A stretch of DNA of 64,000 bases from Aulosira sp. ZfuVER01. Lineage in GTDB: Bacteria; Cyanobacteriota; Cyanobacteriia; Cyanobacteriales; Nostocaceae. Location of the stretch: contig JAVRCV020000059.1 of NCBI GenBank assembly GCA_034530615.2, forward strand, positions 64,001 to 128,000, given 5' to 3'. The translations under genes and the position numbers were made by a program. Shown one piece after another: positions 10,473 to 51,280 of this stretch. The notes below the pieces were generated by a model. The model was not told where the DNA came from. It ran no database searches and was given only the letters and a program-made list of their open reading frames with translations. Each line of letters opens with the position of its first letter. The stretch's first letter is position 1.

Positions 10473-10504
10473 TAGTAAGGGATGATTTAAAGCCAGTGCG
10501 ATCT

Positions 10505-11161
10505 ATGAGTCAATCGATTACTGTATCCTGGTCAACGGTTGATGCGAGGTGTCCGGAAGCATCAGTGCAAGTTGACAAACTCTCTAATCACGATTTAATT
10601 CTGCGCTGTCAAGCTGGACTGCGTCCCGATCGTGCTGCGTTTGCAGAATTATTGCGCCGCTATCAGAGTCAGGTCGATAGGGTGTTATATCACCTAGCAC
10701 CAGATTGGGCTGACAGAGCCGATTTGGCACAAGAAGTTTGGATTCGAGTGTATCGGAATATTAACCGACTACAAGAGCCAGCTAAATTTCGGGGTTGGTT
10801 AAGCCGCATTGCTACAAACTTGTTCTATGACGAGTTGCGTAAACGCAAGCGGGTTGTTAGCCCTTTATCGCTGGATGCTCCCCGCTCGGTAGATGATGGT
10901 GAGATGGATTGGGAAATTGCTGGAGATACTCCTGGCCCAGAGGAAGAACTGACAACTAGAGAATTTTACGAGCAACTGCGAGAAGCGATCGCTGATTTAC
11001 CAGAGGTGTTCCGCACTACGATTGTTCTCAGAGAAATCGAAGGGATGGCATACGAAGAAATTGCCGAAATCACTGGAGTTTCCTTAGGAACTGTCAAGTC
11101 GAGAATCGCCAGAGCTAGATCTAGATTGCAAGCCCAGCTGCAAAATTATCTAGATTCATAA
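10505..11161 (+). CDS. sigG: ECF RNA polymerase sigma factor SigG
   Basis: DLAQEVWIRVY, FRGWLSRIATN, region 4 YEEIAEITGVSLGTVKSRIARAR. Confidence 0.9.
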   Translation: MSQSITVSWSTVDARCPEASVQVDKLSNHDLILRCQAGLRPDRAAFAELLRRYQSQVDRVLYHLAPDWADRADLAQEVWIRVYRNINRLQEPAKFRGWLSRIATNLFYDELRKRKRVVSPLSLDAPRSVDDGEMDWEIAGDTPGPEEELTTREFYEQLREAIADLPEVFRTTIVLREIEGMAYEEIAEITGVSLGTVKSRIARARSRLQAQLQNYLDS

Positions 11162-11328
11162 TCTAAAGTATCTTTCCTCTGCCAAAGGGGAGAATTTAAG
11201 CATTAATTAATAATAGTTAATCATTGTCTAAAAGGCTTAAATATAGCTCACGATAGGGAACAAAATTGATGAATTTCTCAAAAATATTCACTGTCTTTAC
11301 CCGTGTATGAATTGGTAATAATGTTAAG

Positions 11329-11949
11329 ATGACTACTGATTCTCAGTTTTACGACCGTTCTCGCTGGCAAATTCCTCAAGATTTAGCAGATGGAATGGAT
11401 AAGCATACCAATGAATCAACGGGTGCTATGGATGATATGGTGAAGCGCGATCGCTTCGAGTTATTAAGTGCTTACCTCGATGGAGAGGTAACAGCTGCCG
11501 AACGTAGACAAGTAGAAGAATGGCTGGCAAACGATGCCTCCGTTAAATGCTTGTATGCTCGATTGTTAAAGCTAAGGCAAGGCTTGCAAACTATGCCAGT
11601 GCCAGCCACCGAACAGCCTCTAGAAAAAACAGTCCAGCAGGTTATGGCACGTTTACATCGCCGTACCCAGTTAGCTTGGGCATTTGGAGGTGCTGCTGTT
11701 GCGGCTTGTGTTATTGGCTCATTAGCCGGGATCATTCCTGGTGGTGATACCAGAAACCTGCAACTAGCGCAAAATAGAATCGAGCCAACACAAACACTGC
11801 CAGAACCTGCTGCTGTTCCAGCATCACCGCTGATGGTTGCCTTAAATAATCCTGTAATCGAAATTCCTAAAGCAGCAGTGGTCTCTCCAACAAAAACAAG
11901 GCATCACCAACAGCCTAAACAGAGAGAGCTTGAACAGAATTTTAACTAA
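11329..11949 (+). CDS. sapG: Anti-sigma factor (SapG-like)
   Basis: ELLSAYLDGE anti-sigma motif, single TM, directly after sigG. Confidence 0.8.
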   Translation: MTTDSQFYDRSRWQIPQDLADGMDKHTNESTGAMDDMVKRDRFELLSAYLDGEVTAAERRQVEEWLANDASVKCLYARLLKLRQGLQTMPVPATEQPLEKTVQQVMARLHRRTQLAWAFGGAAVAACVIGSLAGIIPGGDTRNLQLAQNRIEPTQTLPEPAAVPASPLMVALNNPVIEIPKAAVVSPTKTRHHQQPKQRELEQNFN

Positions 11950-15266: not shown

Positions 15267-15508
15267 TGGGTAAAGCTACTTCAAACTGTCCGTCGTCTAA
15301 TTGAAACGGTAATTGGACAACTTAGCTTTACGTTTTAATATCGAAAAAGTCTAGGCCAGAGATATATGGCATTTGACGAGTCGTTTTAATCGCAAATCGC
15401 AAACTGTTGGCTCACACTGTTTGTGTCTGGTTAAATCGTTTGTTTGGTTTGGAACCATTATAGTTTGATGGTCTAGTGAGACAATACAATAAGTTGCACA
15501 TCGCATTA
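15267..15508 (+). mobile_element. IS982-family transposase remnant (3' end with terminal inverted repeat)
   Basis: Broken translation WVKLLQTVRRLIETVIGQL/FNIEKV*ARDIWHLTSRFNRK/LLAHTVCVWLN with stops and frameshifts; ends in AAGTTGCACATCGCATTA. Confidence 0.7.
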
Positions 15509-15645
15509 GATCTAGATCGCAGGAAATTACTGAATGCATTTTGTCTTTTACACCTGCGATCGGTCATAACATATCATCTTTAGGAATATTTGTACACTGC
15601 AAATAGAAAGATGATCTCTAAGAAGAGTATGTCTAAATTATGTAT

Positions 15646-15697
15646 ATATGGTAAACACCTGGTATATCTGGAGGCTTGGTCTTAGCCGAGCCTTTTT
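15646..15697 (+). ncRNA. Putative small RNA, array unit 1 (5' end inferred)
   Basis: Promoter-like GAGTAnGTCTAAATT (-10 TAAATT 15634-15639); terminator AGGCTTGG-tcttag-CCGAGCCT-TTTT. Confidence 0.55.
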
Positions 15698-15856
15698 CAT
15701 ATATTTAGTATACAAGTATGTAAGTATATGCTTATATGCTGACAATTTTTCAGATAGCTATGATCTTCAGCAAGTAGTTTCCTAGCAGTTTTTGGCATAT
15801 TTGGATACATCCCCTAGGATGATGCTCTGTGATGAGAGTAGGTCTAAATTAATTTA

Positions 15857-15911
15857 GTACGTTGTTAAGCACAGCAATGATCGAGGTTTGGCTCGCGACC
15901 AAACCTTTTTT
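15857..15911 (+). ncRNA. Putative small RNA, array unit 2 (5' end inferred)
   Basis: Same promoter motif (-10 15845-15850); terminator AGGTTTGG-ctcgcga-CCAAACCT-TTTTT. Confidence 0.55.
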
Positions 15912-16007
15912 CTTCAGCAATAAGATCACTTTTTATCAGTCTTGAGGCGATTTGCACACATCCTCTAGGATGATGAAGTCCAAGCCGAGTAAGTCTAAAT
16001 TAAGCTT

Positions 16008-16059
16008 GGTGTAGTAAATGCTTGGTATACATAGAGGCTTGGCCAAACCAAGCCTTTTT
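16008..16059 (+). ncRNA. Putative small RNA, array unit 3 (5' end inferred)
   Basis: Same promoter motif (-10 15996-16001); terminator AGGCTTGG-ccaaa-CCAAGCCT-TTTT. Confidence 0.55.
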
Positions 16060-16344
16060 CTTGTGTACTTGTGTCGAATAACTAATTATTTGTCGTCGTT
16101 AACAGATTGTTATCGTTATTAACGAATTTTGTGTCATTTTAACAAATTATGGACTTGACGACTGAGCAAGATCAATGAGATAAATTCAATGGTGTCGTTA
16201 AAAATTGCCCGGAATCAATTTGATGTCAGAGGGCTTTGAAAATAAATCTGCGGATATTCTAAAAAATTCTCATAATCAGCAAAAGTCAATAGAAGTGGTA
16301 GATATTGGCAATTCAACAGAGTCTAGTGGGGCAATTTGCTGAGA

Positions 16345-16548
16345 TTAAAGACAAACGCAGGCAATAGCAAAGTCAACAGCCTGTAATGCTAGATCATCTT
16401 TATTTTGTAAGTGATTGTAAATTTTTCCTTTCTGCAAACCAGTAACTCGCATAATGTCAGAAATTGATGAGCCAGCATAACCCTGTTGATTAAACAGTTC
16501 GGCTGCTTGTTGAAGAATTTTTGCTTTTGTTTCTTCGCTTTTAGACAT
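16345..16548 (-). pseudogene. Truncated TetR/AcrR regulator (HTH only)
   Basis: ILQQAAELFNQQGYAGSSISDIMRVTGLQKGKIYNH; stops at 67 aa, no ligand-binding domain. Confidence 0.8.
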
Positions 16549-18864: not shown

Positions 18865-21390
18865 ATGATGACATCTCCAGATACAGCAATTTGGCTACAA
18901 GAACGCACATCTTTAGGAATTCTCTCGCCTGCGGTGTTAGAGGCGATCGCTCAAGTGATGGAAATCCAAGTTGTATCGGAAGGTAGCACCCTAGTGAGCG
19001 AAGGTACTCAGCCAGAAGCACTTTACATTGTCCAAGATGGACACTTGGAAAGCGAAACTAGCAAAACCAACTCCGCTTTACCCCGTGGGTTCCTTCCTGG
19101 AGAAGTCATTAACCTCCAAGAATTACTGTTAGATGAGTTAACTCCATTTACAATTACTACTCTTAACGAATGTCATTTATGGGTGATACCTGCTGAAAAA
19201 TTTCGCGGTTTAGCTACTCAATACTCCGAAATTAATCAGGCTTTTTCTCGGCTGTTGGCGCAAGAATTGGCTGAGGTGACATCTGCTTTAAGCTACCAAC
19301 AAGAACGTACTTTAGCTTTACGTCCATATTTAGTTACTAAGGCGCAACGGGGAATTGTTGGTACAAGTCGCTATGCGGTGCGTCTGCGGGAGCAAATTCG
19401 CGAAGCCGCAAGCGATCGCTTGTCGGTAGAAATTTTTGGCGAACCAGGTTTAGAAAAAGATAATATCGCGGCTCTCATTCACTTTAGTTCCCCCAAGCGG
19501 CGAGAACCAATTATTAAAATAAATTGCGGGATTCTCCAAACCAGTGGTGCAGATTTATTTGGTCGGGCTGGCGGGAAACCCGGACTTTTAGAATGGTTAG
19601 GGGAAGGCACTTTAGTTCTGAATAATATCCAAGAATTGCCCCCAGAGTTATTACCAGCAGTAGCGCAGTTAGTTCAAAAAGATACATATACTCCTGTAAC
19701 TCGTGCTGGAGAACCAAAAGCTGAACCTCGTACTAGTAGAGCCAGGATTTTAATTGTCTCCGAAAGAACTCAGTCAACGATCGAACGCTGCGTTGGTCAT
19801 GTAATTAAAGTGCCACCACTACGGGTACGCAAAGCTGATATTAAAGCTCAGGTAGAATATTACACCAGTCTCTACAGCCGTGCGCGCGGTCTTGCTAAAC
19901 CGCATATTACCCCCGAAGCCTTGCGTCGTTTGCAAGCTTATGATTTCCCTGGCAATCTCAAAGAATTGAAGAATTTGGTAGAAAGAGCGATTGTTCAGGC
20001 GGGAAATGGGAAAGAACTCACAGAAGAAATCTTTTGGTCAGCCGAACCGAAGAAAAAGCAATTTCGCGTTAATTTATTAAATGCCTATCCTCGGTTGCGG
20101 CGGTTTTTGCGTAGTGACTGGTGGCCCGATCGCATTAATTATGGTTTTACCTTTGCAGCCTTTGCTTTTTTGGTAGGTGTGTTGTTTATTGGCCCGCAAA
20201 CACGCGATCGCAATTTTGCTTTAAATCTATTTTGGGCTTGGTGGTGGCCGTTCTTCCTGTTTCTCTTTCCCTTTTTAGGGCGTATCTGGTGTTCAGTCTG
20301 CCCCTTCATGATTTACGGTGAAATTACGCAGAAGTTATCTCTGTGGTTGTTTCCTCGGCAACTCAAGCGCTGGCCGAGGGAGAAAGCTGAGAAATGGGGC
20401 GGCTGGTTTTTATTTGGGCTATTTACCCTAATTTTCTTATGGGAAGAATTGTGGCACTTAGAAAATACAGCTTACCTCTCCGCTTGCTTGCTTTTATTAA
20501 TCACCGCCGGAGCAATGATTTTCTCTGCGATTTTTGAACGGCGGTTTTGGTGTCGTTATCTCTGTCCCATCGGCGGGATGAATGGTTTATTTGCCAAACT
20601 CTCAATGACTGAACTGCGGGCGCAGCAGGGTATCTGTTCTGCAAGTTGCACAACTTATCAATGCTATAAAGGCGGGCCGCAAAAAGGCGAAGGGATGGAA
20701 ACTAACGGCTGTCCTTTATACTCACACCCTGCACAGTTAGAAGATAACAGAGATTGTGTTTTGTGTATGACTTGCCTCAAAGCCTGTCCCCATCGTTCCG
20801 TCGAATTTAACTTGCGTCCCCCAGGAATTGAACTTTGGACAACTCATGTACCCCGCAGCTACGAAGTTGCACTGTTATTTTTAATGTTGGGTGGTGTATA
20901 TCTGCATCGTTTACCAGAATTGCAAGCTTGGTTAGGGCTAAACCTAGATTTAAATATTTTTTGGCAGCACTTAGGATTATCGCTGCTGGCTTTGCTGATT
21001 CCCGTAGCCATTCCCTTTGCTGCATACACGTTAATGCAACTATTGAATTTTGGACGTAAACCCAAAAGATTTATTGAACTTGCTTACGGCTACCTACCAT
21101 TGGTGTTAGGAGCTAACTTAGCCCACTATCTGCGTTTAGGGTTAGGCGAAGGAGGGCGCATTTTACCTGTGGCTTTTGCTACCTTTGGGTTGCATAGCGA
21201 GCAGTTACCTGTATTAGTAGCGCATCCCGCCGTAATTGCCTTTTTGCAAGGTAGTACCCTCATCTTTTCCGTACTTCTTACAATAGTGTTAACTCAAAAA
21301 ATTGCGCGACAACCATTTAAGGTGATGCTTTGGCAACATCTAGCAGCGATCGCTTTAGCTGTTAGTATGTGGGCAATTATTGTGTTGTAA
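18865..21390 (+). CDS. cNMP-binding / sigma54-interaction-like AAA / 4Fe-4S membrane protein
   Basis: N-terminal cNMP domain, FGEPGLEKD degenerate Walker A, WCSVCP, WCRYLCP, CVLCMTCLKACP, many TMs. Confidence 0.85.
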   Translation: MMTSPDTAIWLQERTSLGILSPAVLEAIAQVMEIQVVSEGSTLVSEGTQPEALYIVQDGHLESETSKTNSALPRGFLPGEVINLQELLLDELTPFTITTLNECHLWVIPAEKFRGLATQYSEINQAFSRLLAQELAEVTSALSYQQERTLALRPYLVTKAQRGIVGTSRYAVRLREQIREAASDRLSVEIFGEPGLEKDNIAALIHFSSPKRREPIIKINCGILQTSGADLFGRAGGKPGLLEWLGEGTLVLNNIQELPPELLPAVAQLVQKDTYTPVTRAGEPKAEPRTSRARILIVSERTQSTIERCVGHVIKVPPLRVRKADIKAQVEYYTSLYSRARGLAKPHITPEALRRLQAYDFPGNLKELKNLVERAIVQAGNGKELTEEIFWSAEPKKKQFRVNLLNAYPRLRRFLRSDWWPDRINYGFTFAAFAFLVGVLFIGPQTRDRNFALNLFWAWWWPFFLFLFPFLGRIWCSVCPFMIYGEITQKLSLWLFPRQLKRWPREKAEKWGGWFLFGLFTLIFLWEELWHLENTAYLSACLLLLITAGAMIFSAIFERRFWCRYLCPIGGMNGLFAKLSMTELRAQQGICSASCTTYQCYKGGPQKGEGMETNGCPLYSHPAQLEDNRDCVLCMTCLKACPHRSVEFNLRPPGIELWTTHVPRSYEVALLFLMLGGVYLHRLPELQAWLGLNLDLNIFWQHLGLSLLALLIPVAIPFAAYTLMQLLNFGRKPKRFIELAYGYLPLVLGANLAHYLRLGLGEGGRILPVAFATFGLHSEQLPVLVAHPAVIAFLQGSTLIFSVLLTIVLTQKIARQPFKVMLWQHLAAIALAVSMWAIIVL

Positions 21391-47775: not shown

Positions 47776-49730
47776 ATGACAGAATTGTTACATAATTTTT
47801 TTTTAAGAGTCCATTTATCCCACATGGGCATTGTTACCTTTGGCAGCCACAATTGGTCTGGTTGCATATCATCTCAGATTCGCTAATTGCACTAGCTTAT
47901 TATTCAATTCCAGTGATGCTGGTTTATTTTGTCCGCAAACGAAGAGATGTGCCTTTCGATTGGATTTTTCTATTGTTTGGCACATTCATCGTTGCTTGTG
48001 GCACAACCCATGTAATGGAAGTATGGACGCTTTGGCATCCTACTTATTGGCTATCAGGACTGATTAAAGCTATCACTGCTATTGTATCTGTATATACAGC
48101 TATAGAACTGGTATCCTTAATCCCTCAAGCACTTGTTCTGCCCAGCCCTACGGAACTAGAGACAGTCAACCGTCAACTAGCAAAGGAAATTGTTGAACGT
48201 AAACGAACTGAGGAGGAATTGAGAGAAAGTGAACAACGTTGGCAATTAGCTTTACGCGGTAATAATGACGGTATTTGGGACTGGAACGTTAAAACTAATG
48301 AAGTTTTCTTCTCGGCCCGTTGGAAGGAAATGCTTGGTTATCAAGAGCAGGAGATTTCTCACCATTTTGATGAAATGATTAAAAGAGTGCATCCCAACGA
48401 TATTGAAGGTGTAAAACAAGCAGTAAAAGAACACTTTGCTAAAAGAACACCTTTCTACACTCAAGAGTATCGAATTTTATGTAAAGATGGCACCTATAAA
48501 TGGATTTTGGATCGAGGTCAAGCTTTGTGGGATGGAGATAGTAACGTAGTGCGTATGGTAGGCTCCCATACTGATATTACTGAGCGTAAGCAAGCAGAAG
48601 AGAATCTCAGCCAAATACTCGATCAACTAGAAAGCAAAGTTGAAGAACGGACGGTAGAATTAAGACAAATTAACGCATCGCTACAGGCAGAAATTGCTGA
48701 ACGTCAGCGAATAGAAAAGGCCTTGCGCGAAAGCGAACAGCGATTTCGCGCTACATTCGATCAAGCGGCGGTTGGTATTGCTCATGTGGGAATAGATGGA
48801 CGATGGTTATTAGTTAACCAAAGGCTTTGCGATATTGTTGGTTATACATCCCAAGAACTAGAGTTACGAACTTTCCAAGATATTACCTATCCAGGTGATA
48901 TGGAAGCCAGCCTGAAATATGTTGAGCAGGTATTAGTAGGGGATATTCCTACGTTCTCTTTGGAAAAACGTTATTTATGCAAAGACGATTCTATTGTCTG
49001 GATTAATGTAACCGTATCTTTAGTTCACGAACCTTCTGGTAATCCCAAGTATTTTATTGCTGTAATCGAAGATATTAGCGATCGCAAACAATCAGAGGCA
49101 CAAATTCAAGCCTCACTCCGCGAAAAAGAGGTGCTTTTAAAAGAAATTTACCATCGTGTCAAAAACAATTTACAGGTAATTTCTAGCCTGCTGAACTTGC
49201 AATCTGAATATATTCAAGACAAACAGGATTTGGCGATATTCCAACAAAGTCAAATGCGGATCGCATCAATGGCTTTGGTTCACGAAAAAATGTATCAATC
49301 AAAAGATTTATCAAGAATTAATTTTGGTGAATATGTTCAAGATCTGGTAGCCAGCTTATTGACTTCATACGAAGTTTCTGCCGAGACGATCGCTCTCAAT
49401 ATCAATATTGATGAGCAGATTTTACTAGGTTTAGATACAGCAATTCCTTGCGGCTTAATTATTCATGAACTTGTTTCTAATTCCTTAAAATATGCATTTC
49501 CCTTAGGGGGAAGTGGTGAAATTATTATTGCTATTAGGAAAATCCTAGAAAATAGAATTTTACTGACTGTTCGTGATAATGGTATTGGCTTACCTGTAAA
49601 CTTTAATTTTACAAATACAGCATCATTGGGTTGGCAGTTGGTAGATGCTTTAGCCAGTCAGTTAACCGGAGATATCAACATTCGCAGTGATAGCGGAGTA
49701 GATTTCCAGATATCATTTCCCATAGGATAA
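47776..49730 (+). CDS. Sensor histidine kinase with ethylene-binding-like TM domain, 2 PAS, HisKA_2; frameshifted in a T9 tract near the start
   Basis: SDSLIALAYYSIP and FIVACGTTH (ETR1-like D/Y/I/P/C/H), two PAS, EIYHRVKNNLQ; ATG 47776 out of frame with the main ORF (first in-frame start TTG 47853). Confidence 0.8.
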
Positions 49731-49747
49731 TCATATAGGAATACCAG

Positions 49748-51280
49748 ATGACAAACGCCAAGATTTTGGTTGTAGAAGATGAAGCGATTGTGGCGAAGGA
49801 TTTACGAAATCGACTGACAAGATTTGGTTATATGGTTCCTGCAATTGCTTCTTCAGGACAAGAAGCAATTAATAAAGCACTAGAATTTTATCCAGATTTA
49901 GTGCTGATGGATATTAGATTAAAAGGTGAAATGGATGGTGTAGAAGCTGCTCAAGAAATTCATAGGCATTTAGATATACCTGTAATTTATTTAACTGCTT
50001 ATGCGGATGATTCTACTTTAGAGCGGGCAAAAGTTACAGAGCCATTTGGGTATCTACTCAAACCCTTTAAAGAAAGAGAATTACAAACTAATATTGAAAT
50101 AGCACTAACTAAACATAGATTAGAAAAAGAATTAAAAGCTAACCAAAAATGGCTCTCTACATTACTGAATAGTATAGGAGATGGAGTAATTGCTAGCGAT
50201 ATTCAAGAGTCAGTGAATTTTATGAATCCTGTAGCTGAAAATCTAACAGGATGGGAGCAAGAAGAAGCTTTAGGAAAAAATTCAAAAGAAATATTTAATA
50301 TCGCCAATGCAACAACTCGTAACCCTATTGAAAGTCCGATAAAAAAAGTTCTGCAAGATGGTAATGTAGTCGAAATATCAGAAGAAACTATTCTAATTGC
50401 CAAAAATGGTCAGGAAGTCCCAATTGATGATAGTGCTGCACCAATTAAAGATGACAAAGATAATATTATAGGTGCAGTTTTGATATTTCGGGATATTACC
50501 GAGCGCAAAAAGGCTAGTGAGGCGCGAAAAAGGGAACTTGAACAAATGCAACTTGTAACGCAATTAGAAGAACTCAATCAACTGAAAAATGATTTTTTAA
50601 ATTTAGTTTCCCATGAATTGCGATCGCCTCTCAACAATATGAAGGTGATGATTCAAGTAATGCAAGTGTCTCCCAATGCTCAGGAATTTCAACGTTATCT
50701 GGATTTGATGAAAGTTGAGTGCGATCGCGAGCTAGATCTAATCAACGATCTGTTAGACTTACAACGACTGGAAACTTCTAGCTATTTCCCCGTTGCTCCT
50801 GATGCACTGCTATTACAAGATTTGTTACCCTTATTGATCGAGCCGTTTCAAGCTCGTGTTGCAGAATATCAGCAAACTCTACAGCTAAATCTCCCCGATC
50901 AGCTTCCACCATTGATATCAGACCGCACCAGCTTAGAACGAATATTAACAGAATTACTCAATAACGCCTGCAAATATACTCCTGCTGGCGGTGAAATCAT
51001 CTTAAATGTACATCACAACTCTTCAGTAGCACCCGCAGAAACTATAATTACTGTCAGTAATTCAACAGAAATTCCCACAACAGGGTTAGCACGAATTTTT
51101 GAGAAATTCTATCGCATTCCTCATGCAGACCGCGGCAAACAAGGCGGTACGGGGTTAGGATTAGCCATAGTACAGAAGATGGTCGAACAACTCCAAGGAA
51201 GCATTCAAGTAGAAAGCAGCGAGGGATGGACAACTTTCACTCTGACATTAACTGATTTAGTTGTTCCGCTTCATGAGTAG
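49748..51280 (+). CDS. Hybrid REC-PAS-histidine kinase
   Basis: ILVVEDE, DLVLMDI, PAS, SHELRSPL, NNACKY, GGTGLGL. Confidence 0.92.
   Translation: MTNAKILVVEDEAIVAKDLRNRLTRFGYMVPAIASSGQEAINKALEFYPDLVLMDIRLKGEMDGVEAAQEIHRHLDIPVIYLTAYADDSTLERAKVTEPFGYLLKPFKERELQTNIEIALTKHRLEKELKANQKWLSTLLNSIGDGVIASDIQESVNFMNPVAENLTGWEQEEALGKNSKEIFNIANATTRNPIESPIKKVLQDGNVVEISEETILIAKNGQEVPIDDSAAPIKDDKDNIIGAVLIFRDITERKKASEARKRELEQMQLVTQLEELNQLKNDFLNLVSHELRSPLNNMKVMIQVMQVSPNAQEFQRYLDLMKVECDRELDLINDLLDLQRLETSSYFPVAPDALLLQDLLPLLIEPFQARVAEYQQTLQLNLPDQLPPLISDRTSLERILTELLNNACKYTPAGGEIILNVHHNSSVAPAETIITVSNSTEIPTTGLARIFEKFYRIPHADRGKQGGTGLGLAIVQKMVEQLQGSIQVESSEGWTTFTLTLTDLVVPLHE

Follow-up and report, generated by a model that had tools for sequence, protein, structure and literature searches.

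Sibling small-RNA genes with fixed, type-specific 5′ ends behind a shared upstream element in one branch of the Nostocaceae

Sibling small RNAs (sRNAs) under one transcription factor site are known from streptococci, where the csRNAs depend on CiaR, and from Listeria, where LhrC1-5 depend on LisR; within each of these sets the siblings have largely the same pairing motif, and their effects add up. Function is known for few of the sRNAs of cyanobacteria, and the sibling set studied best, NsiR1, is made up of nearly identical copies. The NsiR1 siblings are encoded in tandem upstream of hetF, and divergent copies are described as having different targets (PMC9045159); NsrR1 is a different RNA (PMC6166021). 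Closest to the locus presented here are three sRNAs of Nostoc sp. PCC 7120 in Table S3 of Brenes-Alvarez et al. 2016 (PMC4734099): 5335648r (row 261), which was Northern-validated (blot not shown), 5335498r (row 260; 46 nt, start site from dRNA-seq, 32 reads, 8/4/9/11), and 4547237r, which was verified by primer extension and Northern and is higher in dense and in long nitrogen-starved cultures. The consensus of the Rfam family RF02596 (cyano_het_sRNA) equals the sequence of 4547237r.

The window (the whole stretch of DNA analyzed, 64,000 nt of a contig of Aulosira sp. ZfuVER01) contains the motif GATG-N11-GAGTAnGTCTAAATT at 15610, 15821, and 15972, each time with 0 mismatches; 0 of 100 shuffles gave any match, even when up to two mismatches were allowed. 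The units follow each other with periods of 211 and 151 nt, TAAATT and GAGG lie 31, 32, and 32 nt apart in units 1, 2, and 3, and every unit carries a terminator hairpin of 9–11 bp followed by a U run (folding z = −2.4, −2.5, and −3.0). Motif scan, shuffles, and folding thus confirmed the three-unit array with near-constant spacing described in a first-pass annotation of this DNA. Its features are the following:

15572..15614, forward strand: upstream promoter element of unit 1 (type A), −74 to −32; profile score 46.5 bits
15634..15639, forward strand: −10 hexamer TAAATT of unit 1
15646..15697, forward strand: predicted sRNA of unit 1, type A; 5′ end ATATGGTAAACACCTGGTATAT, then the terminator; based on 41 type-A units in relatives and on folding
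15783..15825, forward strand: upstream promoter element of unit 2 (type B); 54.8 bits; CATC-N9-GATG centred at about −41
15845..15850, forward strand: −10 hexamer TAAATT of unit 2
15858..15911, forward strand: sRNA of unit 2, type B; ortholog of PCC 7120 5335648r
15934..15976, forward strand: upstream promoter element of unit 3 (type C); 54.1 bits; CATC-N9-GATG
15996..16001, forward strand: −10 hexamer TAAATT of unit 3
16009..16059, forward strand: sRNA of unit 3, type C; ortholog of PCC 7120 5335498r

The genes have a common anatomy, that is, the −74 to −32 element, a spacer of 19–20 nt, TAAATT, a 5′ region of ∼22 nt, and an intrinsic terminator. The element of unit 1 consists of a distal TATC-N9-NATA box and a proximal box that ends in GATG and is degenerate in its left half. 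The first 21 nt of unit 2 are identical to 5335648r and the first 25 nt of unit 3 to 5335498r; the start sites of the two transcripts lie 150 nt apart in PCC 7120 (the period here is 151), in the same order. Judged by sequence, units 2 and 3 are orthologs of these RNAs, and this orthology places their starts at 15858 and 16009, 7 nt after TAAATT, whereas the first-pass annotation had put both 1 nt early (15857 and 16008). The start of unit 1 at 15646 is predicted by analogy. Four RNA runs, which matched only 7% of the words, consist of assembled contigs from a related organism; these span the whole array, a kind of sequence that cannot show RNA ends.

With the orthologs of units 2 and 3 catalogued in Table S3, one of them Northern-validated (PMC4734099), and a paralog present in Rfam as RF02596, individual RNAs of the array are partly known already, and the novelty implied at first is not supported. 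The type A seed of unit 1 is absent from Table S3 of that paper. Against the RF02596 model, the gathering cut-off of which is 35.7 bits, the window units reach 17.0 (unit 1), 24.4 (unit 2), and 20.5 (unit 3) bits; the true RF02596 member of this genome, on contig C32, reaches 74.6 bits. The match to described sRNAs is partial: it holds for the Table S3 entries (PMC4734099) and for the RF02596 paralog, but the units themselves stay below the Rfam cut-off. In a full-text literature search, only PMC4734099 mentioned any member, and the family-level picture developed below (nine or more fixed seeds in a conserved order with a single promoter element, confined to one clade) was not found in print; later Nostoc transcriptome studies, available by subscription, may name these RNAs.

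A DNA search of 60 relatives (36 genomes of the same taxonomic family and 24 others) matched 24 of the 36 and 0 of the 24. The exact promoter pattern was found at 50 loci among 185,579 genomes; the genus-named ones all belong to heterocystous genera, and four loci lie in unclassified bins. From 66 loci, 188 units were extracted and typed by 5′ end, which gave 41 units of type A (unit 1), 24 of A2, 44 of B (unit 2), 27 of C, 6 of D, 21 of E, 7 of F, 4 of G (which is RF02596), 1 of H, and 13 without type. A further type, J, with the 5′ end ATATTTTACCCTGAGTGAAGTC, occurs in three genomes (L276:4415-4534, forward; L277:3879-4002, reverse; L286:1501-1620, reverse). Type J sits at a separate locus and is the sole clear member found in genome G035. 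The family comprises at least nine 5′ types, about ten siblings. In the genome studied here, three siblings are dispersed: D (C79:44457-44587, forward) beside an intact TetR gene, G (C32:203135-203264, reverse), and H (C82:30305-30430, forward) after murD, the latter seen once among the classified units.

A covariance model of promoter plus RNA was built from 52 units, all from carriers. The scan with such a model that the first-pass annotation had proposed detected 6 copies in the genome studied here. Of the other genomes of the order, 6 of 7 from the same family were positive, as against 0 of 133 from other families; across the taxonomic family, 81 of 149 other genomes were matched. Among the 82 positive genomes, 77 hold 4–11 copies, including genomes of only 3.2–3.9 Mb, and five hold 1–2 (with weak hits in two of the five). 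Presence is nearly all-or-none by genus. The family is thereby shown to be restricted to one part of its taxonomic family, with the proviso that a model made from carriers and the stricter filters of the large searches may miss distant forms. The order E-F-A2-A-B-C-D is kept in every multi-unit locus of the 66-locus set except in one genome, where E is inverted (L084/L085), and it stays the same while the flanking genes vary between genomes; in the smallest carrier genome the units are scattered. Two local peculiarities were observed. At L042:7678-7790 (forward), type C is immediately followed by one more promoter element, which precedes sequence unlike any member, possibly a captured unrelated RNA. 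At L275:5243-11396, an exact tandem duplication of ∼5.3 kb doubles the E-A-C array together with a neighboring transporter-like gene in one genome.

The surroundings of the array in the window include the following features:

15276..15487, forward strand: remnant of an IS982 transposase, flanking and outside the RNA genes; contig C54 carries a similar, intact IS982 transposase
16345..16548, reverse strand: N-terminal TetR remnant (Pfam), flanking
47853..51280, forward strand: histidine kinase with ETR1_N (ethylene-receptor-like) and PAS domains, then a receiver-PAS-kinase; 32 kb from the array in this genome

The cluster lies downstream of leuS and the IS982 remnant and upstream of the TetR remnant and two BMC-domain genes; the two remnants had been named in the first-pass annotation and were corroborated by the C54 transposase and by Pfam, respectively. 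The TetR remnant is 89% identical to the intact TetR gene on contig C79, beside which type D and an NAD(P)-binding gene sit in this genome, and close relatives (L049, L054) have the contiguous order ETR1 pair-A-B-C-D-NAD(P)-binding gene. We therefore infer that the three-unit array is a rearranged fragment of a longer one, and the TetR remnant is probably the scar of the rearrangement that split it. The ETR1_N kinase pair adjoins the array, in either orientation, in 8 of 33 fetched loci of at least 9 kb, not all of which are array loci; neither the histidine kinase nor the receiver-kinase has a DNA-binding domain. Three other elements of the window were noted. An ECF sigma factor gene (Pfam) and a zf-HC2 anti-sigma gene, which we take to be a sigG/sapG-like pair, occupy 10496-11949 (forward), 4.5 kb upstream of the array, with no link found. 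An 841-aa protein with cNMP-binding, sigma54-activator-like AAA+, and 4Fe-4S membrane domains is encoded at 18865-21390 (forward), in a lineage that is not known to have sigma54. Behind the unit 3 terminator, in the region 16071-16146, positions 16071-16083 hold a 13-mer identical to the type E seed (GTGTCGAATAACT). Comparable sequence is found after type C in PCC 7120 and in a few relatives; instead of being the rest of a fourth unit, the 13-mer may represent a small repeat.

Identity between orthologs was determined for types A, A2, B, C, and E (21–41 units each) and amounted to 0.91–1.00 for the first 20 nt, 0.67–0.78 for the −74 to −32 element, and 0.45–0.65 for the promoter spacer. Because the 5′ ends are this similar while the spacer drifts, the seeds are fixed and not, as first proposed, diversifying: each set of paralogs has different ones, but orthologs from different genera have nearly identical ones, so that the diversification of the seeds is old and purifying selection acts on them now. 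The 9-bp terminator stem is 95.7% paired over 52 members and shows two-sided changes at 6 of its 9 pairs; its covariation score was reached by 0 of 500 shuffles, a control that is inflated by the relatedness of the sequences. By these measures, what is fixed is the sequence of the 5′ ends, the structure of the terminator, and a patterned motif in the promoter.

That the units are instead a repeat, a MITE, a CRISPR-like guide array, an antitoxin array, or micropeptide genes is highly improbable. The position between IS982 and TetR remnants and the neighbors that vary from genome to genome would suit a mobile repeat, but the copy number is low and fixed (6 here), the order is orthologous, no terminal inverted repeat was found, and the two seeds searched among A–J, A and B, gave 0 hits in viral contigs, and plasmids yielded no real match either. 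No cas or toxin-like gene adjoins the arrays. Type A does begin with ATG, and A, A2, and C can be read as M/V-V-N-T/S/A-W-Y; however, the frame varies after the sixth codon (72 variants in 86 units, with a stop in 36), third positions are constant among units of one type, and no conserved reading frame was found in the family. The 6 copies, the orthologous invariant 5′ ends, and the lack of terminal repeats speak against a MITE or a CRISPR array. The description as paralogous, separately promoted sRNA genes of ∼52 nt on a shared scaffold, which are no CRISPR array, MITE, NsiR1, or Yfr1, is supported.

The reading we prefer, with a probability of about 0.6, is that these are sibling sRNAs of ∼52 nt, separately transcribed, each type of which uses its own 5′ end to pair with different mRNAs, and that one predicted activator switches them on. 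An ancient tandem duplication would have given rise to the array E-F-A2-A-B-C-D and to the dispersed G (RF02596), H, and J, with promoter and terminator being kept and each copy gaining a seed of its own. One activator binding the shared upstream element would then switch the siblings on together, and by base pairing of their 5′ ends with different mRNAs, a single signal would silence several sets of mRNAs. In types A and A2, a stretch resembling an anti-Shine-Dalgarno sequence (CACCU/CUCUU + GGUAUAU) would block ribosome loading. Induction might be expected in dense or long nitrogen-starved cultures, going by one member, 4547237r.

The promoter consensus of the family is TAtCA-N11-ATTTG.AcACAtCC..TAGgaAGATGA-N19-TAAATT. 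A profile trained on the promoters of A, B, and C only scored 48.5 bits at the RF02596 locus, which marks this locus as a paralog, 43.6 bits at D, and 29.0 bits at H; the best other site in 8 Mb scored 14.6 bits, and genome-wide only six sRNA loci matched. In the promoter scan of this genome, no protein gene lay under the element above 17.6 bits. At the resolution of the profile, the element therefore precedes sRNA genes only, a specificity that stems partly from common descent; a shorter true site could occur elsewhere. The shared promoter element of the first-pass annotation is indeed conserved, but it had been drawn too short (the true start is −74, that is, 15572, 15783, and 15934) and centred on weakly conserved bases: GAGTAnGTC, taken as part of the motif, belongs to a weakly conserved spacer, and the upstream homology CTTCAGCAA lies outside the family motif.

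The RNAs could be base-pairing siblings of common origin that have lost co-regulation, their upstream similarity being an inherited core promoter (GATGA as −35, TAAATT as −10) that a sigma factor reads with no dedicated activator. Consistent with this, GATGA at −35 comprises the best-conserved upstream bases, the smallest genome keeps mainly these, no clade-specific LysR protein was found, and the dRNA-seq read counts differ among the three PCC 7120 members (121/9/12/5, 8/4/9/11, and 4/1/1/2; PMC4734099). Positions −74 to −70 and −58 to −45, however, are 80–95% conserved across all types beside a spacer that has drifted, which would be hard to explain other than by a DNA-binding protein; we regard this reading as quite unlikely.

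As to the putative activator, the dyad CATC-N9-GATG is centred at about −41, and a second, half-matching dyad lies 25 bp upstream, centred at −66. Class II activators bind at such a position, for example NtcA at −41.5 (bioRxiv 10.1101/2022.10.10.511513). By its layout, we infer the element to be the site of a class II activator, ahead of a −10 box of the sigma70 type; GATGA may double as the −35 region. With its two ATC-N9-GAT-like boxes, the element resembles a site for a LysR-type regulator, an assignment that is possible but doubtful. A LysR-type promoter would have T-N11-A dyads near −65 and overlapping −35; the dyads here are centred at −66 and −41 with a period of 25 bp, but their T positions are only ∼50% conserved. 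The NtcB box, ATGC-N7-GCAT with a period of 22 bp (bioRxiv 10.1101/2022.10.10.511513), differs in both box and period. No two-box match occurs upstream of the nine LysR genes of this genome, and no LysR protein tracks the family: three small carrier genomes hold only 3 of them, which non-carriers also have. The distal box is eroded in the smallest carrier genome. An ECF/SigG promoter with GTCTAA as −10 was rejected, as GTC is 66–75% conserved and too far from the mapped starts.

Targets of the 5′ ends were sought by ranking duplexes over ∼7,000 crudely called ORFs of this genome, which yields noisy lists; seven candidates from the ranking were checked in relatives, of which two became weak leads and five had no conserved site. 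Among the latter, mscS pairs with B over 18 bp, but 3 of 15 orthologs have kept the site, and a search for the B seed found none in the genome of one of these three; the predicted sites of sucD, a receiver protein, an agmatinase, and a SAM hydrolase are lost in relatives. Pairing of type A with the ribosome-binding site of sucC averaged −13.9 kcal/mol in 21 carriers, a value reached by 14 of 300 anti-Shine-Dalgarno-preserving shuffles, compared with −10.5 kcal/mol in nine non-carriers (157 of 300); type B scores similarly on sucC (12 of 300). A DUF2231 gene pairs with the same segment of type A, and does so equally in genomes with and without the RNAs (2 of 300 shuffles in 20 carriers, 0 of 300 in seven non-carriers). 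Since the two genes were chosen once the ranking was known and related carriers are not independent, sucC and DUF2231 are best treated as weak leads among predicted type A targets. In the relatives, types A, B, and C have no conserved complement of 13–16 nt that could be found, a result that speaks against their acting as cis-antisense RNAs or antitoxins, and seed complements showed no clear enrichment near start codons. Separately, a strongly conserved motif, ∼CATAACAYA...TTTGTAGC.GTTG.TACAGAAA, was observed upstream of the SAM hydroxide adenosyltransferase gene (L397-L422) in carriers and non-carriers alike; with its GTA-N8-TAC core, it looks like an NtcA-like transcription factor site.

The same 5′ ends might serve as sites of protein recognition instead of mRNA seeds, with the RNAs acting mainly as protein ligands or decoys, or as sponges for other RNAs. 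We deem this unlikely, even though the invariant stretch of ∼22 nt is longer than a usual seed, yet no long complement is kept, and B, C, and A2 have small 5′ hairpins whose pairing the rare B variants still fit. There is also precedent, as Nostoc has the sRNA-binding protein PatR, and Yfr2 traps Yfr1 (PMC11797042). Nine different sequences, however, would require several proteins or an unspecific one, types A and E have no stable 5′ fold, and the RNAs pair only weakly with Yfr1 or with each other (best −13.9 and −12.9 kcal/mol, involving different types).

Sibling sRNAs that pair with different mRNAs hence remain our preferred reading. It could be carried further to a single transcription factor that, in one branch of the Nostocales, drives a regulon made of sRNAs only (∼10 paralogs, each with a fixed seed of its own, and not a single protein gene). 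As a post-transcriptional switchboard, this regulon would govern how cells enter the stationary or resting state, with type A throttling sucC and others at the ribosome-binding site; in this full form we find the reading rather doubtful. At the level of the family, three anonymous table entries and one Rfam model are joined into a clade-wide panel that even genomes of 3–4 Mb keep, and a clean natural case is provided of sRNA evolution by duplication, with seeds diverging on a constant promoter and terminator.

Compared with the systems named at the outset, the family stands apart in several respects. The DIF1 motif of NsiR1 promoters, TCCGGA, is absent from the family promoter consensus, which has GATGA at −36 to −32; NsiR1 (RF02399) gave no Rfam hit at E up to 10 in the window, and the neighbors of the array are leuS and two BMC-domain genes, not hetF. 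NsiR1 likewise consists of tandem sRNA genes of ∼60 nt, each with its own promoter, in heterocystous cyanobacteria, but its copies, as described (PMC9045159), show little or no difference from each other, have the DIF1 motif, and are located at hetF, whereas the 5′ ends of the present family differ widely and its locus is not fixed. Table S3 of PMC4734099 lists 5335648r and 5335498r as separate unnamed entries without promoter analysis or function, and none of the three member rows in that table bears a family label. RF02596 and the window units have in common the AGGYUUGG/CCAARCCU terminator stem, a length of ∼52–56 nt, the promoter element, and the −10 box. The 5′ end of RF02596 resembles type B, although its 5′ region GGAUGUUGUUAUGCACUGGAUUUAUA is not matched: unit 2 shares only the GUUGUUA.GCAC core, and units 1 and 3 differ. 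Of the nine or more types, the Rfam model represents one, and it does not include the promoter. With the csRNAs and LhrC1-5 there is no sequence relation; the analogy is one of regulation only, and each type of the present family keeps a different invariant 5′ end.
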